Of a stretch of 64,000 nt of DNA, positions 12,809 through 40,063 are shown piece after piece. The translations under genes and the position numbers were made by a program. Where the stretch lies: NCBI GenBank assembly GCA_003344405.1, contig NOWV01000113.1:62001-126000 (forward strand), read 5' to 3'. This DNA comes from Trichoplax sp. H2. Its lineage: Eukaryota. Under the pieces are notes generated by a model that made no database searches, was not told the origin of the DNA, and worked only from the letters and a program-made list of their open reading frames with translations. Positions within the stretch are counted from its first letter, which is position 1. Each line of letters starts with the position of its first letter.

Positions 12809-14190
12809 CTAATTTAAACTTACATTAACTTCTGTGTCTACGATTTTCTGCTAAAAATTTGAAATTTCTCATAGTTGTATTACTGTTAAATATTTTTACT
12901 CATAGATTTATTTACGTTTGAATGTATTGTAGGTACAGTACTGTGTATACTAATACTGTTCAGTTGTATATAAACGGTATAGTAGTACGATTTATAATCG
13001 AGATTTATTTGCTACAAAGTATTGGTAATAACGTTGTTTAAACATCTTTATGTACAGTGACATATATATTTTTTGACGAAATGTGTGTATAGTTTAATGG
13101 AAAATAATGACGATATATCAGGCACTGGGTTTTATGGTTACCATTGATAAAAAATAAAAATATATCTAGATTTCGAAATAATGGACATGTTTCTATATCG
13201 TTATTCTATTTGACGTATGGAAACACATCATAAAAAAAAATTATTGTCTGTACATATATCATGCTTTTTAAGCCAGATATCGCTTGAGCTATACAAGCCT
13301 AAATTAAATAACTACAAGAATTCCTTTAGGACGCGAACTCTACGCAAGTAAACCGCCTGGTAAGATGTCTACATGCATGCATTAATTAATACAACACCAC
13401 TTTAATCTATTCGTATAGAGAGAGTAGTAAAGGTATTGGACATTGGTGCAATCATTAAATCAGTATACGACCTGCTACTTTATTTTAAGCGCTTGTTATT
13501 TCGCAAGCTTGATATCAACATTTATCAATCTCATTACAATACATTCACATATATTGGATTTAGATTATCAACCTCTTTAATCTACTACAGTTATTCAACT
13601 AATGCTTAATTAATACGACACATTAGCTAATACGCAAAAACAAGGCGATCTGTGTAATTAATAATGCAATAAGCCAAATTTTGTTATCCTACATCAACTG
13701 CTAACTAATTGTAGGTAAACAACGAAAATCGTAGTTGACTTGATAATTACTAATCGATCTTCCTAGGGCAACCATAACCTAATCATCTAGATTATGAAGT
13801 GACTATTTTTAGATCGTGTGAGAATATCTTCAGTTGTTTGCCTTCAATGTTTAGAGGTATTGTTTGACGTTAGAAATGATACCATTATGCAATATATGCC
13901 CTAAAATGTACAATTTTTTTTATCTTAATTTAGATGGTAGCGGTGGATTATAAGGCAAATAAAACATTATAAACAGCTTTGATTCCTTGACTACAGTAGA
14001 GCTAAATATAGATTATACTACGTACAGTACTATAGATTCAATAGAACGAGATGCCGAGTTTGATTACGTATGCATAGCTAATTAGCTTTATTATATTTAG
14101 TATCAGCTTCAACCAATCATATGCCTCGAGTAAATGTATATATATATACCTGGTAGAAAAACATTTTTATCACTAACGATGGCTAAATTC

Positions 14191-14550
14191 AGTCTTCGTC
14201 AAGTACCCTTTCCGCCAGTTAACACTGAATGGAAAGGAGTACTGTCTTGGATTCCGATATGAAACGCTTACTTCGCTTCCTTCGATCGGCCTGGGATTCG
14301 TTCTAATCAATGGTGTATTTTTCGGGTGTTATACAATGTTGTACATTAATCTGTCAATACAACATGGAACAGATCACTGTCCTTTCAATCGGTTGTAGGT
14401 GGCTGCTTCACAGCGATTTCGCCGTCACTCAGCAGAGTGCTAAGAAATAGGAGCAGTTATCCCTATGACCACTCGCTACTATGCTTATCGCTTCGTTGCT
14501 CGCTCTTCTTGTGGCTGTGAAGTTGAGAAGTTTATAGTCGGTGATTGGTC
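14191..14550 (+). ncRNA. Unknown structured non-coding element, copy 1
   Basis: Aligns with copies at 17249-17604 (-) and 18245-18611 (+). Stems show compensatory changes, indels are not multiples of 3, and no ORF is shared. Confidence 0.55.
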
Positions 14551-17248
14551 AATTAGATGAATTGTCTAGCTAATTCCTTTAGCTGATGGCAATTTGAGTT
14601 ATGGTAAGGTAATAGCCGTGCACGATGGATACTAATTAATTTAATTTATTTTGTTGTACAGTAGGCTTTCTAAAGCCAAATGAAGTCAATTTTTTATCTT
14701 TAACCAATATGATCAAAAAACATGATATGTAATGGATGATAATGTGGTAATGTATAATAATAGTAATTTCAATAGATTCAATATGTCTTACATAGAGCAT
14801 TCTGGATATACATTAGCAGTCAAATTGATTTGCCATGGTTCACTGCTGTAACTGTACAATGACAATCTAATTACTCCAAATTAATTCCTTAACAGATATT
14901 TCAGCGACTTACAGTGAAATGTAGGCTATTTTAGGTAGTTATAACTCGTCAATTCTTAAGTAGATCTTCACTATGGTTAAAAGAAGACATATCTTCGTCA
15001 GATTGAATGTATTAATACACACAAGTATATGTCTTAATGCCATTATATATATACTAGTCAATCCTCATGCTCTACACTGTATCGTAATGATAGTTAGCGA
15101 ATAGCAGTCACTTGTAACATTAAGTATTGTGAAATTATTTATTTGCCAAGCTACTATCTTTAATGTAGAATCTTTGTACTATTTTAGTGTGATTTTATAG
15201 CTGTACTATTAACCCGTTTGTCACTTATATAATATAATTGGTCTAATAAAATAGATGCATAAACTTCAAGTCAATCTAATTTTTTTTCCTCATACAGTAT
15301 TAATAACTTGAGGTCTTGAGGTACTACACCTCTTCCAATTTTAAAATCTCTATGTTTAGTGAAATTTTGTTTCATCTTTGAAATTCGTTACCAATAAAAT
15401 AAAAGTTCCTTGCATCGCTTTCATGCATTATTAGTCTTTCCTTTTCTCAGATATTTACAAGAGCTATAAAGTTGAAAGTGTACAATATTATTATTTTAAT
15501 ACTATAGCAGTCTATTATAATACTACAGCTGTGCCACTGATTGGCGATAACTTAATTAAAGGTTAGTTCTGCTATGCTGTTGCCACAGAATTGCTATAAT
15601 ACGCAATACTTTGCGAAATTTAATATATTTAAACATTCTTAAGTTAATCAGTATTAACATTAGAATCAAATTAACTCAGCTTTGTTACCGTATAGTTTAA
15701 GCCAATTTTATAGTTTATCAAATATTCGATACACGAGTATAAAGTCAGTCCATGCGTATATAGCAAAGAAGGTATCATGTTAGTACTTGCATAAAAGCAA
15801 GATTTGAGAAATCAAGCTGTAAAATGTAGTTACATAATGAGACGTTCATAGCAACTTTATACACGCTCACTAACGGAGTCCATTTGATAAAGCTTGCTGT
15901 TGCGTAAAAAATTCACTAATACTGAAAATTTTATGCATTTACAACGTATACTGAACTATTTTATCTGGAAGTACTGTTTTAGATATTTGGATTAAGCTTA
16001 TATTCAAGATCACAGTATTATAATTGTATCAGACCAAAGAGTTGGTCGATCCTGTATTACATGCTGGGTCTGTCATATTACCTTATGCTGATTGAAATCG
16101 CAATGTAATATACTTGAATATGTCTATACGAGTAGTAATGACAATTAAGTATAGCGTACTTATAGATGCTTTTAATTTTTCATTCATTGATATTTGAGGA
16201 TCCTATTACTTCTTGATGAACTGGCTTGCAGCATAATGTTAGTTTTCACAAGTATAGAGGACAATTTTCTGGTTAAAATTAATGAACTTTATTTTTTAAT
16301 TCGTCATCATACACATCAAGATAATAACCGTCTACTCTATATCCAATTAATTACAAACATAAATAATAACAGTATTAAAACTACAGATAATTTTAATCTT
16401 ATAACAAAATATAACAGTACGATCATCTCGCTGACAAGACTACGCTCGTCTGTTTATTCCCGAGAATGTTATGCAATGCAAGGTTAATTTTTGTAAAAAG
16501 ATGTGATGTCATATCAAGGCCGTAGTTATAATATGCTCAGAATAATTATTAATTATTAATTGAGTAACAGAAAAAGAATTCTGCTATTCTATATTTGAAA
16601 CGTACAACAGCTTCCCCTCAGATATCTGCTGCGGCGTTGTAATGTAAAATCTTTCTAGTTCACTATTAATTACTCTGCAGAGGCGATAAGCACAGTATAA
16701 AGTAAGATTGACAGTGAATTAAGTTTTGTGCTGCAAACTAACTGCTATTCAGACATGTAGAATATGAGTGGCATCGACAATGAATTAGTGACTACAAATT
16801 ACGTCGTAACTGCTATTCTCACCAAGCTGATCATTTATTTTCCAAACGCACTAAATAAGTAGGATCGATGTTGAATTAAGTACTACAAATTGCGTTGCAA
16901 GTACTGTACTATTCTCGCTAAACTGGCCGTTCGTTCTTGACAGCGAATTATTTACTGCAAGTTTAATACTATAAACTACATCACAACTACTATTCTTACT
17001 AATATTATCACAGAGGCATTAAAGATCTTTTAAATTTACAATTAAATTATACTGCAACTCATTCCAAAGAAGTATCAGCATATTTACAGCCCAAAAAACT
17101 AATATAAATCATGCTATAATTGACTCTACTTTGGCAAAAGCATTGAATAAATCTTACCATGATACTTACCCATGCTGAAGTTGTTTACTACTGATGCTGT
17201 TTTAGTTGTAAAATCATCAATACTGTATGAACAACTTCAGATTTGATG

Positions 17249-17604
17249 GACCAATCACACTGTCCTTGGCCATTTTGGTTGCTTTAGATCCACATCAAGT
17301 GAATAGCAACCGCATGATAAGTCTAGTAGTAAGTGGTCATAAAGCCAGCCGCTCCTGTTTCTTAGCACTCTTCACGAGAGACGGCGAAATCGCTGCAGAA
17401 GAGCTGTCCTATAATCGGTTGAAAGGTCGATGATCTCCTCCATGGTGTAGCAACAGGCTCAATTCCACCCGCAATAAATACATCATTGATTGGAATTGAA
17501 CATCTACCAATTGAAGGAAGCGTTTGCACGTAATGCTACGGAATCGAAGATAGCACCCTTTTCCAATCGCTACAAGCGAGAGGAAAAGGAGCTTGATGAA
17601 GATG
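17249..17604 (-). ncRNA. Unknown structured non-coding element, copy 2 (most diverged, inverted)
   Basis: The reverse complement carries the shared blocks CAGCGATTTCGCCGTC, GAGTGCTAAGAAA.AGGAGC, GACCACT.CTACTA and GTGATTGGTC, and the same hairpins. Confidence 0.5.
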
Positions 17605-18244
17605 AGAATCAAGCATAATCATCACCGCAATAGCTTTCAAGCAAGGATCTTACATTTGCTTTTATATGAGTACCGATTCGGTCTACTACAATTGTTGAGG
17701 TCACATCCGCCTATGATTGATCCTTTGCTATTATCAGGTCTTTGATTATGTTTATGTTTGTGCAGTACTGTATAATACGATTATCCTAGAGACCCTAGAG
17801 AGAAAGAGACCAGACAAGTCTTTGTTTAAAAAGTTTCCATAATTATTATAATTATAATTCATCGTATGTAAAACGTTCGAAAACGTTTCTACGACGTTGG
17901 CAGATTATTTACGGTGATATACTGATATTAGATGGCCGTTACCATGACAATCGACATTGGTACTACACGATAATAGGTAATCTTTCTAAAAATAGTTCCA
18001 TATATTAGCTTGTCGAATACGATACAATGGATTTATACCACCGTTTAGGCAGTGTTTAGGTGGTTGGTTATTGGCATATAAGAGATCAGGTAGCGGACAA
18101 TACGCTACAGTTGCAATGACATCATCGCCTAAATTTTTCTAAAATTAGCCGAAAATCCTTTCCATCAATGGTTCGGTCGGCATTCAAGAAAGTATAAATG
18201 CAATCAAATTTTCTCGGTTGCTTTACATAACGATGATTGGACTA

Positions 18245-18611
18245 AGTCTTCGTCAAGCACCTTTTCCACCAGTTCAGTCTGAGTGGAAAAGAGTGCTTTC
18301 TTGGATTCCATGGAAACTCTCAATGTGCTTACTTCGCTTACTTCGAAATGACGATGGTTTTCTCTGACGAAGGGTGTATTGCTATCAGTAAGAACTTGCC
18401 TGTTAATACACTCTGGAGTCGATCAAAGTCTTTTCATCCGGTCGAAAGAACCTGCTCCACAGCGATTTCGCCGTCACTCTATGTGGGTGCTAAGAAATAG
18501 GAGCAGTTACTCTGGAGACCACTCGCTACTATATCTTTCACTTCGTTGCTATCCTAAATGTAATATCATTTTAGAGCAATGAAATTGAAAGGTGATAGTC
18601 AGTGATTGGTC
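18245..18611 (+). ncRNA. Unknown structured non-coding element, copy 3
   Basis: Same block order and hairpins as copy 1: AGTCTTCGTCAAG...TCTTGGATTCC...CACAGCGATTTCGCCGTCACTC...GTGCTAAGAAATAGGAGCAGTTA...GACCACTCGCTACTAT...CTTCGTTGCT. Confidence 0.55.
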
Positions 18612-20381
18612 ACTAAAACGGACAGTTGAACGATGATAAAGTAGGTAAGGTATTGTCTAAATTATAGGAAGTTGAGTTTTTGGTTAAAAAATTACTTCAC
18701 TATTGCTAGGATCGATGCCATAGCATTAAAGTAATGCACTAAGTTATAGCTATATAAGAATTCTAGAATTCTCGCATTGCATCTAATACTACAGCCACAA
18801 GACATTAGTCCTCGTCTCTAATACCAAAGTAAAAAGTGTTCTGTCATCTTTATACATATTCGTTATATTTAATAAATTGTTATATAACACCTCAATTGCT
18901 AGTATCCTACTTTTGACGTTACAATGTAGCTTATTCATAGTATTACTGACTATTCTCAATCATAGAGCATCTTCTCCTACTATGATTTCCAACTCTTAAA
19001 AGTAATTTAAGCTCTTTAAATTAGGAATGAAAGTAACTTCGATATTTTCAGTTTTATTTTTGTATCTGCATACTGTATAGGTAGTATTTATTAATAACTT
19101 TACAAATTATCGAGGTATCTCAATGTATAAATTACCGTTGCTTGTCTCTTGAAGAACAATAAAGTATTTGAAAAAAATTTTTATTATCACTGTTTCATTA
19201 ATTGAATTGCTTTTAAATATTTGACGTGACATAAATAAAAGTAGCAAACTGTAGTAGAGTTTAGAGCTACGTAGATAGGTAAAATGATGTATGCTACTAC
19301 AGTCAAAAAACCCTTTGCGACTGAAACAAATTATTGCAGTACTGCAAACTGAAATATCCTACTCGGTTAGAACATGTACTCACCACGAGCATATATTACG
19401 AGCATAGATTTCATTTCTACATACGAGTAAATTGCAAGGATAAATTTTAATGTATATTACCCATAGTATTACTATTCCAAACATGGTCCACTTGCTCTTA
19501 TACATATTTAGGTTCAAGTTAAACTAGTAACCCTTTTAATTTTCAAAAGCTTAACACAAGAATACTAGTATTGGGTTATAATAGAAATGTATATTACTAA
19601 GCTATTTATGTAGAAAAATGCAAAATTTAGTTGGTATAGTAGATACTATTTGGAAGTATTAATCGACTGATAAATCAAAAGAGTAAGCTCATTCTATTAA
19701 AATAAGTTAGGCGTGCAGCTAATCGCATGCATAATGAAAACTCATAGATATAGAGTATTCCTAATTTAGAGGGATACATATCCTGCCGAAATAAAATTTG
19801 GTGAACACTTCGAGAGTTGCTTCCTCCTTCAGGGGTATCATATTCTAATCATAAAAAAATTAACTACATAGAAGAAAAATGTTTTAGACAAAACGTGCAA
19901 AAACTATTCTTTATTTACAATGCGTAAAATACTGCTCAGTACGTAATTTGCGGCTTAGTGATAGCAATACATTTGAGTACGACCACATTTAACTCTCTAT
20001 GCAAATGTAACCTTCAGAAATGAAATAGCTTCCTACTGCTAAAATAGTCCCCTTTGTATAAATTGGCTACAGACTACTATAACTGTACAAGGAGGTCGTT
20101 AACACAAATCTATCGATTTCAATTAGAAAATTTAGTTCGCAAAGGTTTGACAAAATAGTTAACACTTGCCTACAAAGCTAACAGATAATTTGCAAATGAA
20201 ATTCCATCGCTCTTTTTAAACTGTTTAACTACTACTAATTAAATTACATTAAATGTGTAACGTATATTTATATGATATCTAGTCCTCTAATAATGGGTAT
20301 CGATCCATCAAGATATCAAACATTACATGTGGACGACTGTTTAAGATACGATTGTATGTACCATTGATAGTGGTCAACTTT

Positions 20382-23300
20382 TTAATTTGTCGTCACTTTA
20401 AAACTACTAGATGTTCCATGAAAAGGTTGTTTATCGCCCAGTAGCCCTTTACTATGACCAAAATGTTGAATTCTATAGGTACCAGCCGGTGTATCTGGTG
20501 AGATAGTCCAAGTGATTTTGGCTGTACTTGAGGGATCAAGTATGAATGGCTTGTGCCAATAAAATCGTGTATCCCAATCACCATCAGTTAACCGCACATG
20601 CCACTTACCATGCTTGTCTTGCGTTTCAACCGTTAAGAATGTTCCTTCAGTCTTACAGTAGATAAAAAGATGATATCAGAAATTGCCTTCGCGAAGGTCA
20701 TGTGCTTACTTATTAACGCTAACAATTAGAGAAGTTAGCAATTTAACTACTGGTGATTACCATTAAATTGTTTCTGGGATCAGCGGAATAAAATATTACT
20801 TCTACCGTTTCATTCTAAAAGTTCATTAACGACAATATTAGCACATACCATGCAACTTTTATGAGTCGTAGCCTTTATAAATTTTTCTTATGCACATTTA
20901 TTCAAGTTTAGTAACGTACTGTATAGCAATAAAAATTAAAAACTATACTGAGTAGATGTGATGTCTAATTCCCTCTGAAAACTTACAACTTTATACTTGG
21001 ACTTAACATCTTGTTTTACTTGACCAAACTTTTTACCAATCGGGGCTGAATCAAATACAACACCAGGAACAAATGATAGCTGCTTTTTTAACAAATTTGG
21101 TGGAGTCGGTCCAGGCTTAACAGCTTTACCCTACATCACCATGGTATATATTATGTTATGCTATCGAAATGCGAATTTAATTACAGTGATTTCAAGATTA
21201 CTAACACAAAGCATACCTTAACTAAAGCTTGTGATAACTCAACAAACTTAGAGATATAAGCCTGCAAGGTATGAGGTCCATAAATTGTAGAAGCTCCTTC
21301 ATAACGTTGTGCCTAATCATGAATTGCCAAATACAGAACATAAGAATCATTTATTCATTGGCTAACAACGTGTTTATTTTTATAGACTCACATGATATTC
21401 CTCATACGTAGCGATGTAATCTGCATACGTGTTTGACAATCCAGCAATAACAACAGTGGTATCATTACCAAAGTGCGCGTCAACAACCTAACAATAGCAA
21501 AAATTTCATTTAATGATAATATCTATTTAAACATATCAATTTATGTAGCTGTCAAACAGATCTGCTTACTTTATGAACAGCGTCTCTTACTCGTCGACCA
21601 GACATTGTGCTGCATTAAAAAATATTTTTTGAATTATTACTGCTTGTTAGATAAAATGTCAAGCTATTTAAAAAGTTCCATAAAAATGTAGTATTAAATC
21701 ATGATCATTGTATAACCCTTGCTACTTACGTAAATTCCCCTGGAACAGCTACAATAACAAAATTTCCGATTCTTAATACTTGTAAATCCACTATAAAAGG
21801 TTGCCATCGGTAGGGAAATTTAATCTAAAAATGAAAAAAAATAAAATGAAGAAGCTTGCAAAAATCAATAGGGTATGGTGGTCCGTGGAACTTGTGTACC
21901 TCTCCTGTATCCAGTAAAATAGGTTTAGGATGTTGACACGCAATCTGTTCTTTAGATGGTTTTTCTAAAAACTTGACAATAAGGTTCCAAAATTCGTTTC
22001 CAGTTGTGCTGCCTAACCAATGATATTAGCGACTGTTATTAATTGAAAATACTATATAGTCTTTCAATATTTAATAATAAAACTAGCCTTGTTGAAATCC
22101 AAACATTCCTGGTCCATCAGTTGTTCCAGCGGCAAAGCTAAAGCCCATAGCTGGTTTGCAAGTATGAACTTTGGTACCATTCTTTAAAGTTACCGCTACG
22201 TTAGTCATATCGACATACATGTGCCGGAAATCAACAGGCCCTGTTACTTTCTTCTTTGCACCGTCATACAATTCTTTTGCCTTGCTAAACTGATTGCGAC
22301 CAATTATCTCGGTACTTTCAAACATATTTGCACCAGGTCCTCTTCCAATACACTTTGTATCCTAAATTTACATAATAACTCCAGTTTTTAGTTCGAACAT
22401 AAATGAAGTCTCTATTCATACAAAGGCCGAAATGAAATTATGAAATTATAGAATCTGAAATAATGTAAGCTAGCCATTGTTATTTCCAACAGATTTCTTG
22501 ATATTATTACCGAAATAGGACTATTATCAGTTTCGTATTTAATAGAAATTATTTATACATTGCTATTGACTCATGCATCAATTTAACCAAACTTACATCG
22601 CCATTGCAGGTACTGTGATTTTTATTGCAGGGTTTACCGGAATCGATGCAGAAAGGACCGCGAGTATTGGGAGATACATCACCCTCGTTGCTTTGGGCAA
22701 ACGCGGCAACAAAAGATCCCTATAGAAATACATAGTGTATGCTAAACATTTAATATACTGTACTGTATTAGCTATACTTAAGGCATGATCATATATATTG
22801 CACTTGCAACTGCAAATAATATTGATTAGTAGGCAAAGCCGTTAAGACATCAAGAAATTGATTTATAGGCGCTCGTCTGTATAATTCGTTGTACTGTATT
22901 ATCTAATAAATATTAGGCAGCATCCTATCGTACAGTATCAGTAACGCAAACTTTCAATCTTACAAAACTTACTTTCCCGGGGAGAGTACTTTTTCCATTC
23001 ATTTCCTTTTCAAATAAATAGGAGGCATAACCTTTATTGTCACCGCTGACTAATTCGTTTGTATTATTCATACTAGTTCCATGAACTGCAAACCAATTAA
23101 CCATACCAATACCATGGCCTTTAGCATCGGCCATCTTTAGCAAGACCATTTCCTTATCAACGTCATACTTGTATCTATTATAAATAATTATTACCGAATT
23201 ACTACTTAAGTGTCAAGGGATAAGAAATCTTAAACATCATCTTTAAGTAATGAATTATAATCATTACGTAATGGAATTCTAACAGTCTCTTATAAAATAG

Positions 23301-24838
23301 CCTATTCGTGAAGCCGAAAAAATAATTTATTGCAAAGGTGCATCAATGGTATAGAATTCACAGCTAAAAAGTCTTACTTTGCTCTTTCCTTTGGAGGATT
23401 AAATAGATAGGCAGATGGACTTCTATTAATGTTACTATTCAATAGTTGTCCCTGATTGACGAAGATATTGCCAGGCTTTATGTCAGCATGTGCCTTAGCA
23501 ATACTTTCAACAATTCCATCGACGTAAGCAAAGAGTGTTTGATTAATAAAACCTAATGAGGTAATGTCAAATAAAACATATTGGAGGAAACCACCGGGAC
23601 CAGAATGGGTATGGATGCCGCTAATACAAACGTTCTCCTCGGTATACAATTTACCGAAGCGAGCTTTAAGCTTCTTAACTACCTATATGATATTAAAGTT
23701 AACAAAATGACGAAGCTGTTACGTTTAACAAATGTATAATAATAATATCGATTATACAGTATTGCAAAAATATCATGCAGTTATTATATGAATGTTTTAT
23801 TGATTCTTCTCGCGAAGGCTTTCATCGCAACAACTGCTTCTACTTTTACCATGCTTAATAATTTAACTTAATCTACTTCCAGATAATGAAAATATTATCG
23901 TTCTGTGTTAGAGATATGCAAAACTAATAACTATATTATCAGTAGCAATAAATTTATAATCCATCAGCGTATAATGATTATAGTTGCTTACCTCTAGCTT
24001 AACAATTTGATCCACCATACAAGCGTCAATGCTAACAAATACTATTCTACTTTTATTTTGCTTGTCATGTATAATAAAAGCTCGGCTGCGTTGACGGAAA
24101 TGTATACCCTTAGCAGTTTGGGAAGGGTTAGCATAACCCATCTGTTGAAACAATATATGAGTATTGAATTAGATTCACTTGATATTCGAAAAGTAGCATC
24201 AGTAATATAACTAACGAAATAAATATCATTATCAAGGTACTTTAGATAAGATCTGTAAGTAGTGATAGAATATAAGGTAAAAAATGATGAATGCAGAATT
24301 TGAATAAGGATAGAATTCAATGATTTGTTTGTGTGCTGCTTAATAATGTCTAATCTATAGTAGATAGTGACGAGCAGAAGGTATCAGGATACAAACCGTA
24401 TCAATAATTAAGCAGTATCGCACCGTACAGTCTACATTAAAATCAAGTTTTACGTCCTTTTAGCAAATCCTAATGATTGAAACATATACTTGTTCACATC
24501 TATACTTTAATGAATGGAATTAATCAAATTTAAATCAATCGGTCGTTATCACTTGTTATAGCTTCAATAGGATATTATATACTGTATCGTATCCATTTTC
24601 CGTTGCTCGTCACCATCAAGAATTCAGATATTACGTATGATGTTATCCTTCTTAAGTGCATAATAATCACAAGAGTAATCTATCCAATTAATTTAATCTA
24701 TTTTACCATATTAACATCAGCAGCAGGACCAGTAATATCATGGATGCCACTTCCAATAAAATATTCTGTGGATTCGCCTCGGATAAGACCGAGGATCGAT
24801 ATAAAAACTAGAAATGAACAAGCCAACACAGTCTTCAT
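20382..24838 (-). CDS. ASAH2: Neutral ceramidase, multi-exon, with N-terminal signal peptide
   Basis: Motifs MKTVLACSFLVFISILGLIRG..., HDITGPAA, MGYA, IHTHSGPGG, NRSP.AY, WFAVHGTSM, SGDNKGYA, EGDVSPN, AAGTTDGPG, VPGEF, GTYRIQHFG. Confidence 0.95.
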
Positions 24839-24919
24839 CTTGCCAACGATCGTTCGTTTCCACTTTCACGATCTGCAGGAAATGTTATATTACATAATCT
24901 GCATCAACAGTATATGGGG

Positions 24920-27207: not shown

Positions 27208-30200
27208 ATGACCATATCTCCATTATCGCAACAAGGTAATGCGCGTGTACTGTAGAATTATTTTTTTAATAATTATAATCGCACACATTAGGATAAAGAT
27301 AGTATAGTAAAGCGCTGAATTTTATTATCGGCGTGTCTTAGGCCGATTTTTAATTACTCCAATATTGTTTTAAGGGATGAAAGAAACGTCAAAAAATCAA
27401 CCATCAGAGGATCTAAAATCCGTAAAACGTCTTCACCGACATGATAAAAGCATTATGCAATCCATACTGAAATTTCTGTATCAGCCGATCGATCCGTCAT
27501 CTCTTGGTATTACAAGGATTTTATTCGGTGAGAACTATCTACTGCACTTGACACGGTATTACTTAAATGGGTGTTCAATCTGTTTAAGTATGCTGCAGAA
27601 ATTAAATCTTATTTAAAACCTAGCTTTTAAATTAACTGTAAAATGCTATCTAGGCTTTTTGATGATCTTTGATATTACACAAGAACGTGGCATGGTTTAC
27701 ATCAACTTAAGATGGGGTGATCCGAAAGCCTGCGAATTTCCTTTACTAAGCAATTTACCAATCTTATCTGCTGACTGGATGCATATTTTGTATTTGTCGA
27801 TGATTGCTGCTGCTATCGGTATATGTATCGGATTTTACTATCGTATCGCTAGTATCTGGCTTGCACTAGGCCATTGGTACCTTATCTTGATAGATAAAAC
27901 TGCTTGGAATAATCATACATATCTTTTCGGCCTTTTTACAATCTTCTTTTCAGTTACGAATGCTAATCGATGGTGGTAAGTTGCCATATTTATTGATATT
28001 GAAGTATAGTTGTAACAAAAGAGAAATCACCACGATCACTTTAAAAGTGTGATATACGTATCGATGTAGATATCTCTTCTACATGGCTATTATGCTTCTT
28101 TTATCTACTACAATTTTAAGTTTACTAATTATATATAATTAATTAAACCCTATAATTTGAACAAAATCAAGGTCTGTTGATGGAGTCTTAAATCAAAAAA
28201 TTAATAATGTTCATATTCCACGTTGGAACTTAGCGCTGTTTCAGTTTCAGGTAAATACAACTACAAAATAAATTAAGTATGTGGTACCTTATCATCGGAT
28301 GACTTACTGTAAATATTTATACTTCGAAACAGATTTTCTTGGTATATTTCTTAGCTGGCGTGAAGAAACTTAATTCTGACTGGATTACGGGTAGTTCAGT
28401 TACGACGGTTGGCAGTCATTGGGTTTTTGCCCCTTTGCGTTTATTATTAACTACCCAACAAATAAGCCAATATGTTTTGCATTATGGTGGATTAATCTTC
28501 GATTTAATCGAAGGATACTTACTCTTTTTCAACATTACTCGACCCTTAGGAATTGCATTGGGCATTTACTTTCATATTTGTAATTCGCAGATTTTCACCA
28601 TAGGAATTTTCCCTTATGCTATGTTAGCCACTCTTCACATCTTTTGTAATCCTGATTGGCCAAAAAAAGTTATCATGAGGCTGTCACCTCGATGGAGAAA
28701 ATATTTCTTGCTCGATACACCACCAAAATATTCAGCATCCAATTGTTATTATAACGATTACAATCCAGATGACACTGGAAGTAGTGATCAAGAACGACTA
28801 GGTGATTCTGTTATAGAGAAGAAGTGGATACAGGAAGATTCCACTAAAACGAAAGGAATACAACAATTTAATTCACAAAATCGGCTGACGATGGCCATAC
28901 TAGCTGGATATGTAACTCTGCAACTTTTTCTACCCTTCTCTCATTTTATAACCCAGGTAAAAACTACTGGTATATACTGTCTAACAAATGTAATTGTCGA
29001 CTATGAGTATAGGATCATCTATTCATTTTAAGTCAAAATAGATTAAAGATATTTTCTGCATTATCTAGTTTAAATATTCCGTTCAAGATGTGATAGAAAT
29101 ACTTATCTCTTATATTAGGGCTACAATACATGGAATGAGCGTGGTCTTTACGGGTATTCGTGGGATATGATGGTAAATAGCTGGTCTTACCCTAAAATTA
29201 AAATCTTAGTTGTGGATTTATCTAATGGTAAACAGTATGGCGTTTTACCAAAGGTAATATAACTGCTAATTAAGGCAATCACTCAATATCAGATTTTATC
29301 AGTTCTTGCATTAGACCATGAATGTATTTACATCAGCATTCCATTTAAACGTCGCATTACCAAATTCTATACTTGAATATTTCGGTTCATATTTGTAATG
29401 CTTTCAAAATTGATGCTCCAAAATATTTATCAACTTATATAGTACGATATGTAATATCAATTTTATAATGACGATTTCATTAAGTGAATATAGTAAAATG
29501 GATATTTTGCAAGAAAATGGATGTACTAGCTATTAAGATCAGTATCAAGTAATAGCAAGGATAATTCATTTTATAAAACAACGTTATTTAAATGTTTATT
29601 TGTCTCCTATAAACTTATTAAAGTATCACGCTTCGATAATAATTATTACACATTGGTCAGAGTCCAATATTGCTAACTGAAATAGGTTCAATATAATGGC
29701 CGATAATTAATCTGTAATTAAAAAATATTTACCGCTCCATGATATAAAAATATTCTTGTGTATAAGTATTGATGCCGAATATGAGCGATGGTATAGCTAA
29801 TTTAAGATAATTTTTTATTAATTAATCTTATATCTTCATTTACATATATACTGCACTTTAGAGCTTTATTGGTGGCGCAGATTCAAGATTTCTACGCTGG
29901 AGTACTTATCCTAGCATGATTAAGCAATACGGCAATTGTCTTGCGAAACAAATGAAAACTTCGTATGAAATTAAACAGCCAGCAGTGTATTTGGATATTT
30001 GGAAGTCAATGAATGGTCGATTTAGGCAAAGGCTTATCAATCCAAAAGTTGACATCGTTTCTGCACCGTGGTCACCATGGAAAAAGACTCCCTGGTTAAT
30101 GCCATTGCTAGCTAATTTAACCAACTGGAGAAATAAAATGCCCGAGCTTAAGAAAAGATATTCTATAGACGATAAAAGTCGAATTATACGATTTTATGCT

Positions 30201-30665
30201 GATTTCCCTGGCTATACACAAGAAGTACCTGTTCCAGCTGCTCTGCAAGCTAACCTAACTGTCCTTGAAGGTCAAGTCGAGGTTAATGCTAGCCGTTACA
30301 TTTACAAATTAAACCCGAAAATGACAATTAGGTTACCTTCTAATGTCACACATACGGTCACTGTTACCTCCGAAAGGCCTGCCGCTTATTTCTATCGGAT
30401 TGAAAATGCAACGCTAGCAAGGATTCTAGCAGAAGAGAAGGAGAATATAAAAAATAGAGTAGAAGATTATAGCCCTAAGAGCTATCTTACTTATTTTAGC
30501 ACCAGCGTTCGATTCGTTACTGGAAATATAATAGAGTTTTTGAAAAGTAAAGTTTTAATTTATTATCACATTGCCATAAATACTTTCGATGCTATTCAAA
30601 ATATTATAGAATCCGAAAATATCACGGATTCAACTCTAGATTCAGTTTCGCCTTCTAATAATTAA
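27208..30665 (+). CDS. GGCX: Vitamin K-dependent gamma-glutamyl carboxylase, paralog 1. Exons 27208-27235, 27375-27527, 27654-27975, 28172-28250, 28333-28956, 29119-29253, 29862-30665
   Basis: Motifs PIDPSSLG.TRILFG, QERG, WNNHTYL, YFLAGVKKLNSDW (catalytic Lys), [28 protein letters not shown]. All junctions are GT-AG and in frame. Confidence 0.93.
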
Positions 30666-32379
30666 AATTAGACGATAAATATATTACTTAATAAATTAAG
30701 TTGATAAATATCTAAGGATCATTTATAAAAGCCTAAATAATTGTAATTCGGCTAAAGCCATAACGTTATCGGTCATGCTATAATTCTAAGAGCTATGAGC
30801 AGCATTGCGATATTGTATATCATACTATCATATAATAGGCTGAGTTCTACATATTTAGATCTCCTTATGAAATATACAGGATGATACATCACTTATTATT
30901 GCGTAATGAATGCTTTATTGGCCCCGAAGGTTCACAGTCTTCTTAACTCAAAATTTGAGTTAATAAAAGGTTACACTTTCATTATACCTTCCATTATAAA
31001 CAATTACTTTAATAAGTACATTATATCTGATTATTCTACGCCACTTAGTGCTTTCCCTCATATTATTACCACACTTACCACACTTTCAAAACATAACTAC
31101 TATAATTAGCCAAAATTGCTATATATTGCAAATGTCTTTACATTACTTAACACTGTATGCCAAATAAAAGATTAACGTAGACTTTGATTATGAATTTATT
31201 TTGATCTATCATAACCTGTAGCAACGTAGTATAGATGTGCCGTACGTAAGAAATAAAATATTTTAAATCGATAAGGCAATTATTAGCATTATATAATGAT
31301 TTCATCATCATTCTAGCTCTCAAAGTATTGTACTCCTATACTGTACCTTAAAAGTTTTGGTAACTGACTGTGATTAAGCGATTCTTAGTAGTTGGCATGT
31401 ACAATCTTTTACTTCGATTTATTCTATCGATGGAATTTATTGCACGCAGTACGATTGAACATTTGGACTTAATAATGGCATGACGGTGCTTTTCTGTTTA
31501 TAAACTTCAGTGTTAAGGTCGTCAAAATTCGTAAAAAGTGAAAATTTTACAGATATTGATTACCCTATTAAAAAATATGGCTGCGCAAAATTTAAGCAAT
31601 TACGGATATGTTGCCTGTTAAAATACACATATAGTTCCTAGGATAATAAATTTATATTGTTTATCATATATAAAAGTTAATGCAACTAATTGCCTTACAT
31701 TTTGTGAATTAGGTGCTGTGATAACTCCATAACCTATAGTGGAATTCATTTCTACCACTTTTAAAGACTTAATCAGATCAGTTTCATAGGCGATCCTCTT
31801 AAAGCAATACTTATTTCATTGCAGTAAAATTTAAGATTTTAAAATCATAGTAAATCTCATTTATTAGGATTGCTACGTAATAAAAGAATGAAATCAAATC
31901 GCTGAATCTTGCACACTAATATATGCCTTCTTATTGATAACATTTGAATAAAGCAAATATCATTAAATCAAAAGATTTTGATAGACTAATGTTGATTCTG
32001 CTGTAATAGCTATGTGCGTATTTCTTTTGTCTAGTTAATGAGTACGATGTATGCAGTTTACACATTCTGCAGTTAACCTATTTTTATAATTCATACTGCC
32101 AATAATCGTCTTGTAAAAAAATAAGAATTTACTATAGTAGCAGTAGCTTTTAAAGGTTTTAAAATTATTCACTTACAGATTTATTTCTAAATATTCTATT
32201 GATAGCAGGATAGAAGTATCATTCTTGGATGCTGTATAAATCTGCACTAGTCAGGAGCTAAAAATTCTCTAACGGCAGCAAGCACCAAAGTTTTGGATCA
32301 CTGATTTAGATATTCTAGTAATTATGTGTGGAAATAGCACAGTAGTTATGTTTCTAGCAATAAATCATATTTAGTCAAA

Positions 32380-34608
32380 ACTATAAATCTTCTAACAGTC
32401 ACAGATATCGAAGATCCTACCTACATCTCGCAAATTATCTATAGCATTTATCGTCGTGAAGTACTAGCAGGCTTGTTATATAAATTAGCCTAAAATTGTA
32501 TACTCTTAACAATGTTACTGATGATTTTGAATCGCTTATTCTGAAATTTGTTTCTGGACATGAGAGTGTCTGTAGTAAAATGGCTATTTATATATAGCGA
32601 AATCAGGAATTACGGCAAAAATATGATTCTGCGACAGTAGTTCACATCAGAACTATTAAGTCAATCATTTAAAGATTTTTTTCTATGTATTAGAGTACAT
32701 GTACCATGGAAATACCGGTAGTATATATTCATCTAATGAAATAGCGATGAAATTTTAAACGTAATATATTGAGGATAAATTTTACATCAAGTTTATGTAC
32801 ACATAATAAAATATGAGAAGGTTTTATTATCACAATCTATAAATATTGGTAAAAATTCGTACGCTCGCGGAATTTGATATGATGTGGTATAGTTGCAATT
32901 ATTGATTTCTATGTGTCTGTTTTTTAGCGAATAAAAGTTGATTTAGTTGCTGTTCGTAAACGTATCAGTCTAGTACTTTAGAGTCCATATAATATTCTAT
33001 TGAACTAGTAGGCGAAATACCGTACATTAATTAAACAAACTAATTATAGCAAAGGCAAGTAATGTAGTGTTCAATTCTATGTAAACTATAAGTTTGAGTA
33101 AATAGCTCTCTAAAAAAATTGTCCATACCGTTCATTAATCAGCATAGCATATTATACATTCACCGTAAATAGTACACTAGATAAAACGATAAAGTTTATG
33201 TCGCAAATGAAATATTTTCCCTTTTATATCCGGATAATTCAGCTGATACAAGTTAAAATGTGGACTGTAATCATTGTAGCGAACAACATTATGAGCCTCT
33301 AATAGCTGGAAAAAAATTGTATCCATTTCATCTTTCTCTAATAACGTCAACAGCTGTACCGTATGAAGTTTTGTTGTTATTGATAATGCTTACTGCAATA
33401 CTTTTGAGACATGTAGTAAAGAAAGAAAGAAAAGAATATCATAAAGAGAAGATGATACTGGATTTATTAGTACCATATGAATTAGTGTTATTTACGATAT
33501 TAACTTTATAACGTATTATTAATTTACCTACATCACGTGTAAATGTACGCTCACACTTGGGTTCAGGTACTGTATTTGTTTATACTTTATTTTATCTCAA
33601 TAAATATAAAAGAGGCTTTGAGACCATGCTAGAAATGACACTTTGAGTAAATCCTGGTAGTAGCATCCAACTATCGCTTCGTTAGAGCAGGTTTAGAGTA
33701 ACCAGATTCGGCTACTGATGAATGCGCTATAAGAAGCTGTAATGATCGCTATGAAATTAGTCAGAGTCTTTTTTTAATTAGTCTTAGTCTTAGTCCGCAA
33801 TAGAATAGGCTTCTTAATATATCGAGACACTAGCTATTAATTTAAGATAAACTACTTTGCTACTTTGCCCACGTATTATTCTCTCTATATTAGTCAAGCA
33901 TAAATGTTGATCTATCAAATTCTAGGACTTCATAACACGCTTTTAAAATGATGTCGAGTTAATAATTTAATGTTCTATTATTTTTAGCTTCAAATTACAC
34001 TTTGCGAATCATTAGATATCAAAAAATATTAACCATTAATAAGAAAAACAAATTTTCTGTCTATGGTATAGTAATTTTCAACCTACGTGCATCGCATAGA
34101 GTAACAAGTGCAACGGAAAAGTTACTAAAATTAACAAAAATACATCATATTACGGCAATTAATTTTTTATTTTCCGAGTATCATATTGTTGTCATTATTC
34201 TAGTGTACAGTATTTTACTAGCTTTAAGATATCCGAGTAAGTTCTTCTATAGATTTATAAACACCGTACCGAGCTAAGATATATTGTAATTCGATGCTAT
34301 TTTTACCTCTATTTAAATTCTGTACCTAATTTAATATCAATAATATACTCCCAAATTTGACCATGATATTCATTAACCACAACGTTAACGAGGAAATCTT
34401 AGTATTTTAATTTATTACTATCTATCGTAAATACAAACCTCTGGCAGTCATGATGGTCACTTTAAGTGGATTGAAATCTTCAATTAATGGAGCGAAATAA
34501 ATAAAAAATTAGCTTAAAATGAACACTTATGCAAGCCAGATGTGGCACACATGTTTTAAAAACGTATCCCTAATTCATACCTGAATTATTAATCACTTTT
34601 AGAATAAT
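32380..34608 (+). repeat. Non-coding segmental duplication, copy A
   Basis: Colinear shared blocks with 41160-42280 and 46170-47192, e.g. AAGAGAAGATGATACTGGATT, CAAAAAATATTAACCATTAATAAG, GCAAGCCAGATGTGGCACACATGTTTT. Confidence 0.85.
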
Positions 34609-36262: not shown

Positions 36263-39200
36263 TTAGAATGTTTCTGATGATAAAATTTCGAAAAATTTCT
36301 CATGCATTAAAGCAGCTTCCTCGTGCTTACCTTGATCTTCATAAAGCTGTCCAATGGCGAAGTATAAACTTGCAATTGCTGGATGGTTATGATCAAGGAC
36401 CAATCGTCGAATTCTAAGTGATTTCTTAAACATAGAAATAGCCTCTTCATGATTCTTTTGATCACAATATATAGCTCCTAGATTACTATATGAGTCAGCA
36501 ATAGAAGGATGATTGTGACCAAGGAATGAACATTGAACTTTGAGTAACTTCTTATATGTAGAAATGGCCTCTTTAAGTTTACCTTGCTTAAAATAGGCGT
36601 TTCCCATGTTATTATATATTGCAGCAAGATCAGAATGATTATCACCAAGGATTGACAATTGAATTTTGAGTGAATTCTTATACATAGATATACTCTCCTC
36701 ATACTTTCCTTGGTCAAGATAGACATTTCCGATGTTGACATACGTCATGACAAGATCGGGATGATTATGACCTTGGACTGACAATCTAATTTCAAGTGAT
36801 TTCTTATGCATAGAAATAGCTTCTTTATATTTACCCTGTCTTCTATAGCAGATTCCTAAACTACTATATGAATGGGCAACTTGGTGATGATTGTGACCAA
36901 AAAGTGACAACCTAATTTTGAGCGATTTCTCATGCATAGAAATAGCTTCATCATCCTTTTCTAACTCGTAAAGGCTAAGCCCAATATTATTATATGCCAT
37001 AGCAAGATTGTGATCATCGCAGTCTGTGACTAATATTTGAATTTTAAGTGACTTCTCGTAATTAGAAAAGGCTTCTTCATACTTACGTTGAGCATAGTAA
37101 ATATTTCCTATCTCACTATATGATTGGGCGACATCAGTGTGATTATCACCTAAAGTGGACTTATGGATTTTGAGCGACTTTTCATACATAGAAATAGCCT
37201 TTTCATGCTTGCCCTGCTTAAAATAGGCATTTCCTAAGTCCTTATATGATCTAGCCATATCGGGATGATTGTCATCAAGAACAGATAATTTTACTTCGAG
37301 TGACTTCTTATACATAGAAATTGCCTGTTCACAATTTCCTTGATTCATATATGCAGTTCCTATTCTGCTATATGACATAGCCACTTTTGGATGATTATGA
37401 CCAAGGGTTGACAATCGAATTTTAAGTGCCTTCTTATGCATAGAAATAGCCTCTTCATGCTTATTCTGAATAGCATAAACAATTCCCATATTGTCCTTTA
37501 TATCAGCGATATGGGGATGATCGCCTTTATGGACTAATAATTCAATTCTGAGTGACTTCTCATACATCGTAATAGCTTCTTCATGCTTGCCTTGTTTAAA
37601 ATGCTCGTTCCCTAAATTGATATACGAATCAGCAATTTGGGGATGATCGTGACCGAGGACTGATAATTGAATATTGAGTAACTTTTCGTACATGGAAATA
37701 GCCTCTTCGTGACTTTCTTGTTTAGCATACTCATCAGCTAGATTGCTGAATGAATTAGCAACTTCGATATTATCTTCGCCAAAGACTGACGAACGAATCT
37801 TTAGCGATTGTTTATACATAGAAATGGCTTCTTTATGTTTACCTTGATCGCTATATACCATTCCTATATTGCTATATAATTTTGCAACTTCAGGGTGATT
37901 GTGGCCAAGGACTGATAATCGAATTTTGAATGATTTCTTATACATTGAAATAGCATCGTCATGCTTACCCTGACGAAAATAGACGTTTCCCATCTCATTG
38001 TATGATTCAGCTAAGTGGGGATTACTAGAGACTGATGATTGAATTTTGAGTGACTTTTCATACAGAGAAATAGCCTCTTCGAACTTTCTCTGATGAAAAA
38101 AAACATGCCCCATGTTACTATATGAATTGGCAATATCGGGATGACTATGATCAAGGACTGATAATTGAATTTTAAGTGCCCTCTCATACATAGTAATAGC
38201 ATCTTCAGATTTGCATAGATGAGCATAGGCATTTCCCAGATTTTTGTATGATATTGCAACATGAGGATGCTTGTCACCAAGGACTGACAATTGAATTTTA
38301 AGTGACCTTTTAAACATCTCAATGGCTTCTTCATACTTCTTTTGAATGGAATAAACTTGCCCTAAGTTGTTATATGACATGGCAACATCGGAATGATTGT
38401 GACCAAAGACTGACAATTGAATTTTGAGTGACTTGTTGTGCATAGAAATAGCCTTTTCATGTTTGCCCTGCTCCTGATATACAACTGCCATGTTGTTATA
38501 TGACTTAGCTACATCGTCATGCTCGTGACCAAAGACAGATAAATTAATTTTGTGTGATTTCTCGTACATAGAAATAGCATCTTCATACTTGCCCTGATTG
38601 TAATAGATATTTCCAATATTATTGTATAATGCAGCAACATCTAGGTGATTACTACCAAGAGTAGACAGATAAATTTTAAGTGACTTCTCATACATAGAAA
38701 TAGCCTCTTCATGCTTGTTCTGATTTCTATACACAATGCCTATGCTATTATATGATCTAGCAACATCAGGATGATTGTGATCATAGACTGATAGTCGAAT
38801 TTTGAGAGATTCCTCGAACACAGAAATAGCTTTTTCATACTTGTTTTGATCACAGTAGACCCATCCTAAGTTATAATATGATGCAGCAACATCAGGATGA
38901 TTATGGCCGTGGGCTGATAATCGAATTTTGAGCGACTTCTCGAGCATAGAAATAGCTTCTTCAAGCTTGCCTTGCTTTCTGTAGATAGTACCAATATTGT
39001 TATAAGACTGAGTAACGTCAGGATGATTATGGCCAAGGGCTGATAATCGAATTTTGAGCGACTTCTCGAGCATAGATATGGCTTCTTTATGCTTACCTTG
39101 ATCGCCATACACAATTCCGAGATTGTCATATGATGCAGCAACATCAAGATGGTTATCACCAAGGGCTGACAATTTAATTTTGAGTGATTTCTTATACAAA

Positions 39201-40063
39201 GATATAGCAACTTTGTACTTCTTTTGACTTTGGTAGATCTTTCCTAAGTTGTTGTATGATTTGGCAACATCAGGATGAGTCTGACCAAGGGCTGACAATC
39301 GAATTTGGAGTGACTTCTCAAACATAGAAATCGCCTTATCCCAATTGTTCTGGCTAAAGTAGACGTTTCCTAGACTATCATACGACGTTGCCACGTCAGG
39401 ATGATTATAACCAAGAACTGATACCTGAATTTTGAGTGATTTCTCATACATAGACATGGCCTCTTCACTCTTGTCCTGACACTGGTAGATATCCCCTAGG
39501 CTACTGCATGACTTGATGATATCGAGATGATTGCGACCAGAAACTGATAATTCAGTTTTGAGTTCCTTCTCAAGCATAGGAAGAACCTTGGCTATGCTTT
39601 GAGAATCAGTAAAATCTACATACAAAAAATTCTCGGTATCTACACCCTCCTTGTCTAACAAATTTAATATTAAATCCTGAAATTTCATTTGATCTTCTTC
39701 CACTGCCCCATTCCAGTCTCCTCGTAATTGCTTAATACCACCTTGCTTGTCTAAGCATTGAGCAATTAATAATTCTTCCTGTAGCTTTTCAGCTAGTTCT
39801 TGTGCTTTTTTACGGAATTTTTCTGCTTTTATGCATTCACTTCGCTTTATGTATATATCCACAGTAAGTAGATAAATGTTGCATTGAAGTCGATCAAGAT
39901 CAGCATCACTTGTACTTTGGGATATCGTCTGAATTTTATCCAAGGCTTGTGTATAGTAAGATAACGCTTCACTAAGATTGCCAGATTGGTGATTAACGAA
40001 ACCTTTATTGAATACAGATATTATATCCTCAGGGATAGTAAACTTGATCGGTTGATTCTCCAT
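36263..40063 (-). CDS. Intronless tetratricopeptide-repeat protein, 1266 aa, ~26 tandem 42-aa TPRs (kinesin-light-chain/nephrocystin-3-like type)
   Basis: Single ORF with the repeating unit HPDVAxSYNNLGxVYxxQGKxEEAISMYEKSLKIxLSxLGxN after a ~170-aa N-terminal region. No P-loop motif seen. Confidence 0.93.
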   Translation of the reverse strand: MENQPIKFTIPEDIISVFNKGFVNHQSGNLSEALSYYTQALDKIQTISQSTSDADLDRLQCNIYLLTVDIYIKRSECIKAEKFRKKAQELAEKLQEELLIAQCLDKQGGIKQLRGDWNGAVEEDQMKFQDLILNLLDKEGVDTENFLYVDFTDSQSIAKVLPMLEKELKTELSVSGRNHLDIIKSCSSLGDIYQCQDKSEEAMSMYEKSLKIQVSVLGYNHPDVATSYDSLGNVYFSQNNWDKAISMFEKSLQIRLSALGQTHPDVAKSYNNLGKIYQSQKKYKVAISLYKKSLKIKLSALGDNHLDVAASYDNLGIVYGDQGKHKEAISMLEKSLKIRLSALGHNHPDVTQSYNNIGTIYRKQGKLEEAISMLEKSLKIRLSAHGHNHPDVAASYYNLGWVYCDQNKYEKAISVFEESLKIRLSVYDHNHPDVARSYNSIGIVYRNQNKHEEAISMYEKSLKIYLSTLGSNHLDVAALYNNIGNIYYNQGKYEDAISMYEKSHKINLSVFGHEHDDVAKSYNNMAVVYQEQGKHEKAISMHNKSLKIQLSVFGHNHSDVAMSYNNLGQVYSIQKKYEEAIEMFKRSLKIQLSVLGDKHPHVAISYKNLGNAYAHLCKSEDAITMYERALKIQLSVLDHSHPDIANSYSNMGHVFFHQRKFEEAISLYEKSLKIQSSVSSNPHLAESYNEMGNVYFRQGKHDDAISMYKKSFKIRLSVLGHNHPEVAKLYSNIGMVYSDQGKHKEAISMYKQSLKIRSSVFGEDNIEVANSFSNLADEYAKQESHEEAISMYEKLLNIQLSVLGHDHPQIADSYINLGNEHFKQGKHEEAITMYEKSLRIELLVHKGDHPHIADIKDNMGIVYAIQNKHEEAISMHKKALKIRLSTLGHNHPKVAMSYSRIGTAYMNQGNCEQAISMYKKSLEVKLSVLDDNHPDMARSYKDLGNAYFKQGKHEKAISMYEKSLKIHKSTLGDNHTDVAQSYSEIGNIYYAQRKYEEAFSNYEKSLKIQILVTDCDDHNLAMAYNNIGLSLYELEKDDEAISMHEKSLKIRLSLFGHNHHQVAHSYSSLGICYRRQGKYKEAISMHKKSLEIRLSVQGHNHPDLVMTYVNIGNVYLDQGKYEESISMYKNSLKIQLSILGDNHSDLAAIYNNMGNAYFKQGKLKEAISTYKKLLKVQCSFLGHNHPSIADSYSNLGAIYCDQKNHEEAISMFKKSLRIRRLVLDHNHPAIASLYFAIGQLYEDQGKHEEAALMHEKFFEILSSETF

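Follow-up and report, generated by a model that had tools for sequence, protein, structure and literature searches.

The 64,000 nt of Trichoplax sp. H2 DNA analysed here (contig NOWV01000113.1, positions 62,001 to 126,000; hereafter the window) carry three diverged copies of a unit, copies 1, 2 and 3, with copy 2 on the minus strand, that probably represent an undescribed family of structured non-coding RNAs. The fold of the unit is kept beyond its sequence conservation and with compensatory changes, as far as three sequences can tell. Most likely, this is a small, locally duplicated gene family transcribed by RNA polymerase II (Pol II), in which the selected product is the RNA itself.

Three diverged copies of one unit

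A profile built from the three copies (nhmmer) has exactly three matches in the window at E ≤ 10, with E values from 1e-124 to 1e-140; these are the three paralogues that a first-pass annotation of this DNA had proposed, and no others. That annotation gave the unit as ~310 nt, which proved too short: the conserved unit measures 386-391 nt in copies 1 and 3, adding a terminal hairpin and a small 5' hairpin over an ATG. Strict local alignments join copies 1 and 3 over 14166-14551 and 18222-18612 (81% identity), copies 1 and 2 over 14189-14489 and 17605-17316 (79%) and copies 2 and 3 over 17602-17232 and 18247-18628 (79%), and mean column identity across the three copies is 72%. On the left, homology sets in at the position from which RNA contigs match the genome, and on the right it stops at the foot of the terminal hairpin; comparison of the upstream regions and of the downstream tails among the copies detected no shared sequence. 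Copies 1 and 3 are direct repeats 4.05 kb apart. Copies 2 and 3 stand head to head with predicted starts ~595 nt apart (17630-18225), and copies 1 and 2 are convergent, their tails ending ~550 nt apart.

The window is AT-rich, with 30-37% G+C outside one repeat-rich open reading frame (ORF). The surroundings of the copies, initially described as a gene-free ~7 kb, hold no ATG-initiated ORF of at least 84 amino acids between 13000 and 20300, and the description stands in that sense only. Ten of the 12 stop-to-stop ORFs of at least 50 amino acids overlapping 14600-18200 were scanned against Pfam, none with a match at the default cut-off (the single match at E ≤ 1 had E 0.13, chance level); the other two are copy-2 frames, 17362-17535 and 17409-17618, both on the minus strand.

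A five-domain fold kept through divergence

RNAalifold, applied to an alignment of the three units (alignment A2, whose columns number the pairs below), returns five domains with an unstructured linker (Table 1). Every stem listed in the first-pass annotation is present in the sequence and recovered in this consensus. Its 5' hairpin is domain 2, where the 12-bp stem, the one-base bulge and the two double swaps it described are all found, the latter at pairs 40-77 (CG in two copies, UA in one) and 44-72 (UA in two, CG in one); the different apical stem attributed to copy 2 appears in the single-sequence fold of that copy. The middle stem corresponds to pairs 153-162 with 199-208, including one double swap. 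The 3' domain was likewise correctly drawn: it is domain 4, whose closing stem encloses an invariant 16-nt CAGCGATTTCGCCGTC hairpin, a CACTC/GAGTG hairpin and an unpaired CTAAGAAA (CUAAGAAA in its RNA form). Domain 5, in which GACCACTCGCTACTA pairs with TAGTC(G)GTGATTGGTC, was absent from the annotation. Copy 2 alone has an extra inverted repeat, CTGAAGTTGTT / AACAACTTCAG, at 17167-17248, between its terminal hairpin and its GGTAAG motifs; it gives chance-level matches to microRNA (miRNA) precursors on both strands (E 0.19 and 3.1).

Each copy folds better than its own dinucleotide shuffles (z -3.36, -4.12 and -5.94, with none of 100 shuffles as good in any copy), whereas three controls of equal length, taken from the flank and the copy-1 tail, fold no better than theirs (z +1.00, -0.39 and -0.52). 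In 200 alignments with columns shuffled within conservation and gap classes, consensus energies average -38.2±4.6 kcal/mol and go no lower than -52.2; the real alignment reaches -84 kcal/mol (z -9.9), and its structure conservation index is 0.68, against 0.39±0.04 (maximum 0.52). All five domains contribute: their z values are -7.7, -6.5, -4.3, -3.8 and -11.0 from domain 1 to domain 5, each beaten by none of 300 shuffles, while the linker between domains has z 0.0 with 63 of 300 shuffles as good. The 113 predicted pairs are standard pairs in 89.9% of 338 cells; displacing the partners by 1-3 columns lowers this to 32-47%. Both sides have changed in 12 pairs, a count that shuffled alignments equal once in 500 (mean 5.7±1.7) and that falls to 0-5 on displacement. 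The proposal at the core of the first-pass annotation, that structure is under selection, thus finds support in energy, conservation index, both-side changes and all five domains. These tests use three related sequences and a structure derived from those same sequences, and what they give is a strong signal, not proof.

Two further observations bear on the fold. A G>A variant at 14540, carried by three of the four sequencing runs compared below (X19, X20 and X12), converts a G-U pair into A-U. The reverse complement of the alignment reaches only -63.7 kcal/mol with an index of 0.60, and 38 cells of the forward fold are G-U pairs, which indicates that the RNA strand is the strand carrying the TATA box and the ATG.

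Transcription of the copies

All three copies have a TATAWA sequence 36-50 nt before the ATG; the background frequency is 0.037 per 15-nt window. A heat-shock-element-like half-site upstream of the copy 3 TATA box is not common to copies 1 and 2. The stretch is contained in 20 public sequencing runs from seven studies, two of them recorded as RNA-seq (X19 and X20), and these two were compared over 13000-19500 with two runs of flat, DNA-like depth (X6 and X12). Upstream of copy 1 (13868-14084) the RNA depth is 0.2 in X19 and 0 in X20; it rises to 130 and 111 over the unit, the fit starting at 14174 and 14166, respectively, and is 85 (to 15641) and 81 (to 15670) over the tail. Upstream of copy 3 (17774-18207) it is 0 in both runs, and over the unit, where the fit starts at 18225, it is 98-224 (X19) and 114-356 (X20). 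RNA contigs of copy 2 span 16830-17562 (X19, depth 6.9) and 16199-17465 (X20, depth 9.8). The stretches of copy 2 outside RNA coverage, and runs with a low share, are left out of the evidence. The DNA-like runs X6 and X12 cover the RNA-silent bins at their normal depth (91-99 and ~14-15, respectively; 99 and 15 upstream of copy 1), and few other stretches in the 6.5 kb compared are covered as strongly as the unit. Copies 1 and 3 are therefore clearly transcribed, with depths of 100-350 and silence just upstream in both RNA-seq runs, and copy 2 is weakly covered. DNA-like depth is flat over the units, implying that those genomes hold no near-identical extra copies.

The discrete ~310-nt RNA initially proposed is not what the contigs show, as they continue from the unit into 1-3 kb of unrelated sequence, fitting the genome over 1.1 kb in copy 1, at least 1.3 kb in copy 2 and possibly 2.8 kb in copy 3. 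Since contigs give no strand, ends or levels, we infer, rather than observe, that unit and tail form one molecule. RNA polymerase III stops at the first T-run and makes short transcripts; here T4-T5 runs lie inside the unit (14319-14323 in copy 1, and a TTTT within the 12-bp stem of copies 2 and 3), the RNA contigs continue past these runs and the transcripts are longer than 1 kb, which argues against this polymerase.

After 18660 the copy 3 contig of X19 no longer follows the window: its next 93 letters differ, perhaps through strain rearrangement or chimera formation, and an 18-letter piece of them is absent from the 64 kb even when two mismatches are allowed. A circular RNA was considered and rejected, the letters after 18660 in X19 being different from the start of the unit. 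Spliced-leader addition, suggested by 26-30 letters that do not fit the genome at the starts of RNA contigs, was also rejected, as no AG precedes the fit starts.

Relation to known RNAs

The first-pass annotation had taken the unit for a previously undescribed RNA. In agreement, no Rfam 15 family reaches its gathering score anywhere in the window. Searches of the single copies at E ≤ 10 gave 13 chance-level matches in all, scoring 10.5-22.1 bits where the gathering scores are 43-91 (50 for the family of the best match), and each family was matched by one copy only. Small nuclear RNAs (snRNAs), U3, SRP, RNase P/MRP, 7SK, telomerase RNAs, self-cleaving ribozymes and group I/II introns are of comparable size and multi-domain fold, but none reaches its gathering score here. 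Hammerhead and other ribozymes, a group I intron, C/D or H/ACA boxes and an Sm site were rejected because Rfam gives them no support and their motifs, checked by eye, are not conserved across the copies. ARAGORN found no tRNA in the sequence. A narrow literature search, on secondary structure in bdelloid non-coding RNAs, returned nothing relevant and is insufficient to call the family unpublished.

Three known systems offer partial likenesses, and the unit is a member of none of them. Plant enod40 RNAs are structured RNAs with very short conserved ORFs (PMC1888808): like the unit, they are Pol II transcripts of a few hundred nucleotides that combine several conserved structure domains with a short 5' ORF, and peptide and RNA functions are hard to separate. 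The unit nevertheless has no homology to them in sequence or structure, its host is not a plant, its ORF is without coding periodicity, and conservation is seen here among three paralogues whereas enod40 peptides and domains are conserved across many species. Some long non-coding RNAs (lncRNAs) are retained on chromatin through a motif recognised by the U1 small nuclear ribonucleoprotein (U1 snRNP) (bioRxiv 10.1101/310433), and a 5' splice-site-like motif in a transcript that is not visibly spliced is what all three copies present; the RNAs of that account are mammalian and not defined by a conserved multi-domain fold, and in our case U1 binding, a particular localisation and the polymerase are all putative. 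In fungal telomerase RNA the 3' end is made by spliceosomal cleavage (PMC4299874), and the unit resembles it as a structured Pol II RNA with a splice donor close behind that could define a mature 3' end. By eye, however, and without reference to the telomere repeat of the host, no template-like or repeat-like C/A-rich stretch can be made out in its conserved unpaired segments, nor do the copies have a common Sm-like site ahead of the donor; a telomerase RNA with three diverged copies, each expressed separately, would also be unusual.

Weighing the alternatives

We favour a lineage-restricted, Pol II-transcribed structured RNA, and hold the RNA-gene part of this reading at slightly better than an even chance; the mechanism discussed further below is graded much lower. 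Several observations weigh against it. With only three related sequences, shuffling makes the results look more significant than they are, and covariation is out of reach of a formal test. Scans of metagenomes (with independent conserved patterns), prokaryote genomes and viral contigs gave no hits to relatives outside the window, in collections that hold little eukaryote DNA. The RNA contigs, devoid of strand, ends and abundance, run on for 1-3 kb, and a discrete RNA of ~390-440 nt is not demonstrated by them; immediately upstream of the fit starts at 14166/14174 and 18225 they contain 26-30 unexplained letters. Copy 2 has a depth of only 6-10 and its coverage stops ~70 nt short of the predicted start. 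No splice joint at G|GTAAG occurs in any of the four runs over 13000-19500. Finally, an AUG with A at -3 is aligned in all three copies and begins a frame that runs through the 5' hairpin without a stop for 26 aligned codons, with a ratio of nonsynonymous to synonymous differences (pN/pS) of 0.43-0.54 for all three pairs; the statement of the first-pass annotation that no ORF is shared must therefore be dropped.

This last point could mean that the unit is a micropeptide mRNA or a dual-function RNA, in which the selected product is or includes a peptide of 26-44 residues (consensus M..(S/H)L(R/H)Q(V/A)PFP....(E/D)WK(G/R)VLS(W/S)IP) made from the 5'-proximal AUG, the structured remainder being a stabilising or regulatory 3' part. 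The in-frame pN/pS is indeed below that of the other two frames (0.55-1.81, three pairs), copy 1 also has G at +4, and the transcripts are capped-mRNA-like in having a TATA box and possibly a long tail. However, the variable columns of the ORF fall 7/11/13 on codon positions 1/2/3 (4/8/11 in codons 5-26), and second positions that vary more than first ones are not a coding pattern; nowhere does the unit show coding periodicity. Most of the conserved residues have their codons in one or other strand of the 12-bp stem of domain 2, so the stem alone would account for much of their conservation, and where copy 2 has its different apical stem five residues are rewritten. The ORFs also end differently (27, 26 and 44 codons) and the leader is only ~5-20 nt. 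Conservation 3' of the ORF is as strong or stronger, including the invariant 16-mer, and downstream the best frames vary among blocks and copies and contain stops; the ORF may be translated, but the other ~300 nt must be conserved for a different reason. No candidate emerged when the 44-residue product was searched against proteins, which carries little weight given that the collection may omit short ORFs. On balance we consider a selected peptide unlikely. Coding explanations of a different kind were rejected. A multi-exon protein gene conflicts with RNA contigs that are collinear with the genome and with conserved blocks that need differing frames and carry stops, and an alternative genetic code, in which stops would be read through, conflicts with the long standard-code ORFs with Pfam domains in the same window. 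In copy 2 the stop-separated ORFs do lie in one frame. The same holds for copy 1 in the form that all four runs carry, in which, relative to the window, one A (at 14262) is missing from the AAA at 14260-14264; the short ORF and the next open stretch then share a frame, with only a TGA between them. We read this as coincidence because further downstream the copies disagree in frame.

The sequence just behind the unit calls for a reading of its own. GGTAAG, a consensus splice donor, occurs within 87 nt past the terminal hairpin in all three copies (background 0.025 per 110 nt) amid otherwise unrelated sequence, and the unit could accordingly be a first exon or structured 5' leader of spliced transcripts, G|GTAAG being a working donor, with a function in regulating a downstream exon or within an inefficiently spliced lncRNA. 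By eye, a plausible 57-nt intron can be drawn in copy 1 (14605-14661), with a CTAAT branch-like site, a T-rich tract and CAG, and the departure of the X19 contig from the genome in copy 3 might also be taken for splicing. Against this, joints are absent from the four runs, in which minor splicing may escape since contigs drop rare forms; the copy 1 contigs of both RNA runs cross the putative intron unbroken; the X19 departure lies 15 nt past the GT and not at it, and its 18-letter piece is missing from the window; and the interval downstream has neither an ORF of at least 84 amino acids nor, in the ORFs scanned, a Pfam match. A first exon or leader of spliced transcripts is, in our view, improbable. 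A promoter, a structured leader and a splice donor in this order also resemble retroviral 5' leaders, and the copies might be relics of a mobile element, that is, long terminal repeat (LTR)-like or leader-like segments of an old non-autonomous retroelement; the direct repetition of copies 1 and 3 and the transcripts running into unrelated flanking DNA would fit. Yet homology begins at the transcription start and not upstream of it, meaning that no U3-like part is shared, the 10 of 12 interval ORFs scanned have no reverse-transcriptase, gag or other Pfam match, and terminal repeats or target-site duplications are not obvious at the edges by eye, no formal search having been made. The flat DNA-like depth leaves no near-identical copies elsewhere, the window has just three copies with their folds maintained, and compensatory changes together with high expression are unexpected for decaying copies, all of which makes a mobile element very unlikely. 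A precursor of small RNAs, in which the ~31-bp terminal hairpin or the whole module would be cut by Dicer- or Drosha-type enzymes into miRNA-like or small interfering RNA-like products, is suggested by the shape of domain 5: a long, nearly perfect hairpin with conserved arms and a variable apex in all three copies, and a structure signal exceeding that of every other domain (z -11). Weak look-alikes among miRNA precursors exist, at 17.2 bits against a gathering score of 74 and thus far below threshold, but all Rfam matches are at chance level, the conserved part (by eye) is the base of the stem and not a ~22-nt stretch one helical turn above the basal junction, and the other four conserved domains would be left unexplained. 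We consider this possibility very unlikely.

Features of the copies and of the rest of the window

Table 1. Features of the three copies (positions in the window).
Copy	Feature	Position	Strand	Description
1	TATA-like box (TA run)	14137..14148	+	36-42 nt before ATG, 29-37 nt before RNA-contig fit
1	Conserved unit	14166..14551	+	left edge is the RNA-contig fit start (14166 in X20, 14174 in X19)
1	Domain 1	14176..14199	+	small hairpin containing the ATG; A2 columns 12-35
1	Short ORF	14179..14262	+	27 codons and TGA; overlaps domains 1 and 2
1	Domain 2	14202..14243	+	12-bp hairpin with one-base bulge and apical stem; A2 columns 38-79
1	Domain 3	14278..14400	+	long irregular hairpin including the middle stem; A2 columns 121-243
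1	Domain 4	14401..14458	+	three-way junction, 9-bp closing stem
1	Domain 5	14467..14550	+	terminal hairpin of ~31 bp, GACCACTCGCTACTA ... TAGTCGGTGATTGGTC
1	Unconserved transcribed tail	14552..15650	+	RNA contigs; presumably one molecule with the unit
1	5' splice-site-like GGTAAGGTA	14603..14611	+	52 nt after terminal hairpin
2	TATAAAA box	17660..17666	-	50 nt before ATG
2	Conserved unit	17249..~17630	-	alignment and fold
2	Domain 1	17619-17596	-	fold
2	Short ORF	17616-17536	-	26 codons
2	Domain 2	17593-17552	-	fold
2	Domain 3	17518-17407	-	fold
2	Domain 4	17405-17347	-	fold
2	Domain 5	17338-17249	-	fold
2	Low-level transcribed tail	16199..17248	-	RNA contigs; presumed strand
2	Two GGTAAG motifs	17153..17170	-	75 and 87 nt after terminal hairpin
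3	TATAAA box	18193..18198	+	40 nt before ATG, 32 nt before RNA-contig fit (18225)
3	Conserved unit	18222..18612	+	alignment, fold and RNA contigs
3	Domain 1	18230-18253	+	fold
3	Short ORF	18233..18367	+	44 codons and TGA
3	Domain 2	18256-18297	+	fold
3	Domain 3	18339-18449	+	fold
3	Domain 4	18450-18508	+	fold
3	Domain 5	18517-18611	+	fold
3	5' splice-site-like GGTAAGGTA	18644..18652	+	32 nt after terminal hairpin

Convergent with copy 3 lies a multi-exon neutral/alkaline ceramidase gene (20382-24865, minus strand; Pfam E 1e-28 to 2e-41 on four exons). An RNA contig of X20 (2780 nt, depth 534) is collinear with the genome from 18633 through the last exons and the last intron of this gene, and as it is collinear through the intron it represents either an unspliced or an antisense transcript. 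Further along, 27700-34600 and 46300-51750 form a diverged segmental duplication, with blocks 70-88% identical at an offset of ~12.5-20.8 kb, each copy of which carries HTTM / vitamin-K-dependent gamma-carboxylase-like exons. An intron-free ORF of 1285 amino acids (36263-40120, minus strand) consists almost wholly of TPR_12/TPR_10 repeats, with a DNA periodicity of 126 nt and 24 registered copies. A second repeat ORF, of 1227 amino acids (54721-58404, plus strand), is built of short Gly/Ser/Trp-rich repeats in units of ~51-57 nt, has no Pfam match and is locally G+C-rich (42-50% against ~32% elsewhere).

A possible mechanism and its significance

How might such an RNA work? In the scheme that we propose, for which we infer the polymerase, the strand, the continuity of unit and tail, the binding of proteins and the role of U1, transcription would start ~30 nt past the TATA-type box, 5-20 nt before the conserved AUG, and the first 386-391 nt of the transcript would fold into the five conserved domains. 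The resulting module could be a putative protein-binding scaffold, the RNA part of a ribonucleoprotein, with two invariant parts, the domain 4 junction and the foot of the terminal hairpin, as candidate recognition sites. The G|GUAAG found 32-87 nt downstream of the module may bind U1 snRNP, which would keep the RNA nuclear or chromatin-bound, or alternatively mark the separation of the module from the unconserved tail. To our knowledge, a route to functional RNA through the spliceosome or a U1 site is documented for fungal telomerase RNAs and not for animal RNA gene families. In its complete form, with the module as the RNA subunit of an undescribed lineage-specific ribonucleoprotein, a mature 3' end or nuclear retention set by the spliceosome/U1 site just past the terminal hairpin, and three functionally diversified paralogues, the scheme is speculative and we would not rate it above a slim chance.

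Most lineage-specific lncRNAs show little or no evidence of a conserved fold, whereas this module of ~390 nt keeps five helical domains through ~20-28% divergence. With a promoter of its own for each copy, strong coverage and a fold that is kept, the family is a testable candidate for a new RNA-protein machine in a little-studied, AT-rich eukaryote. It also poses two questions: whether a splice-donor-like motif placed after an unspliced structured RNA serves end formation or retention, and whether the 26-codon ORF lying over a conserved hairpin is translated. If orthologues confirm the covariation, the family would belong in Rfam.

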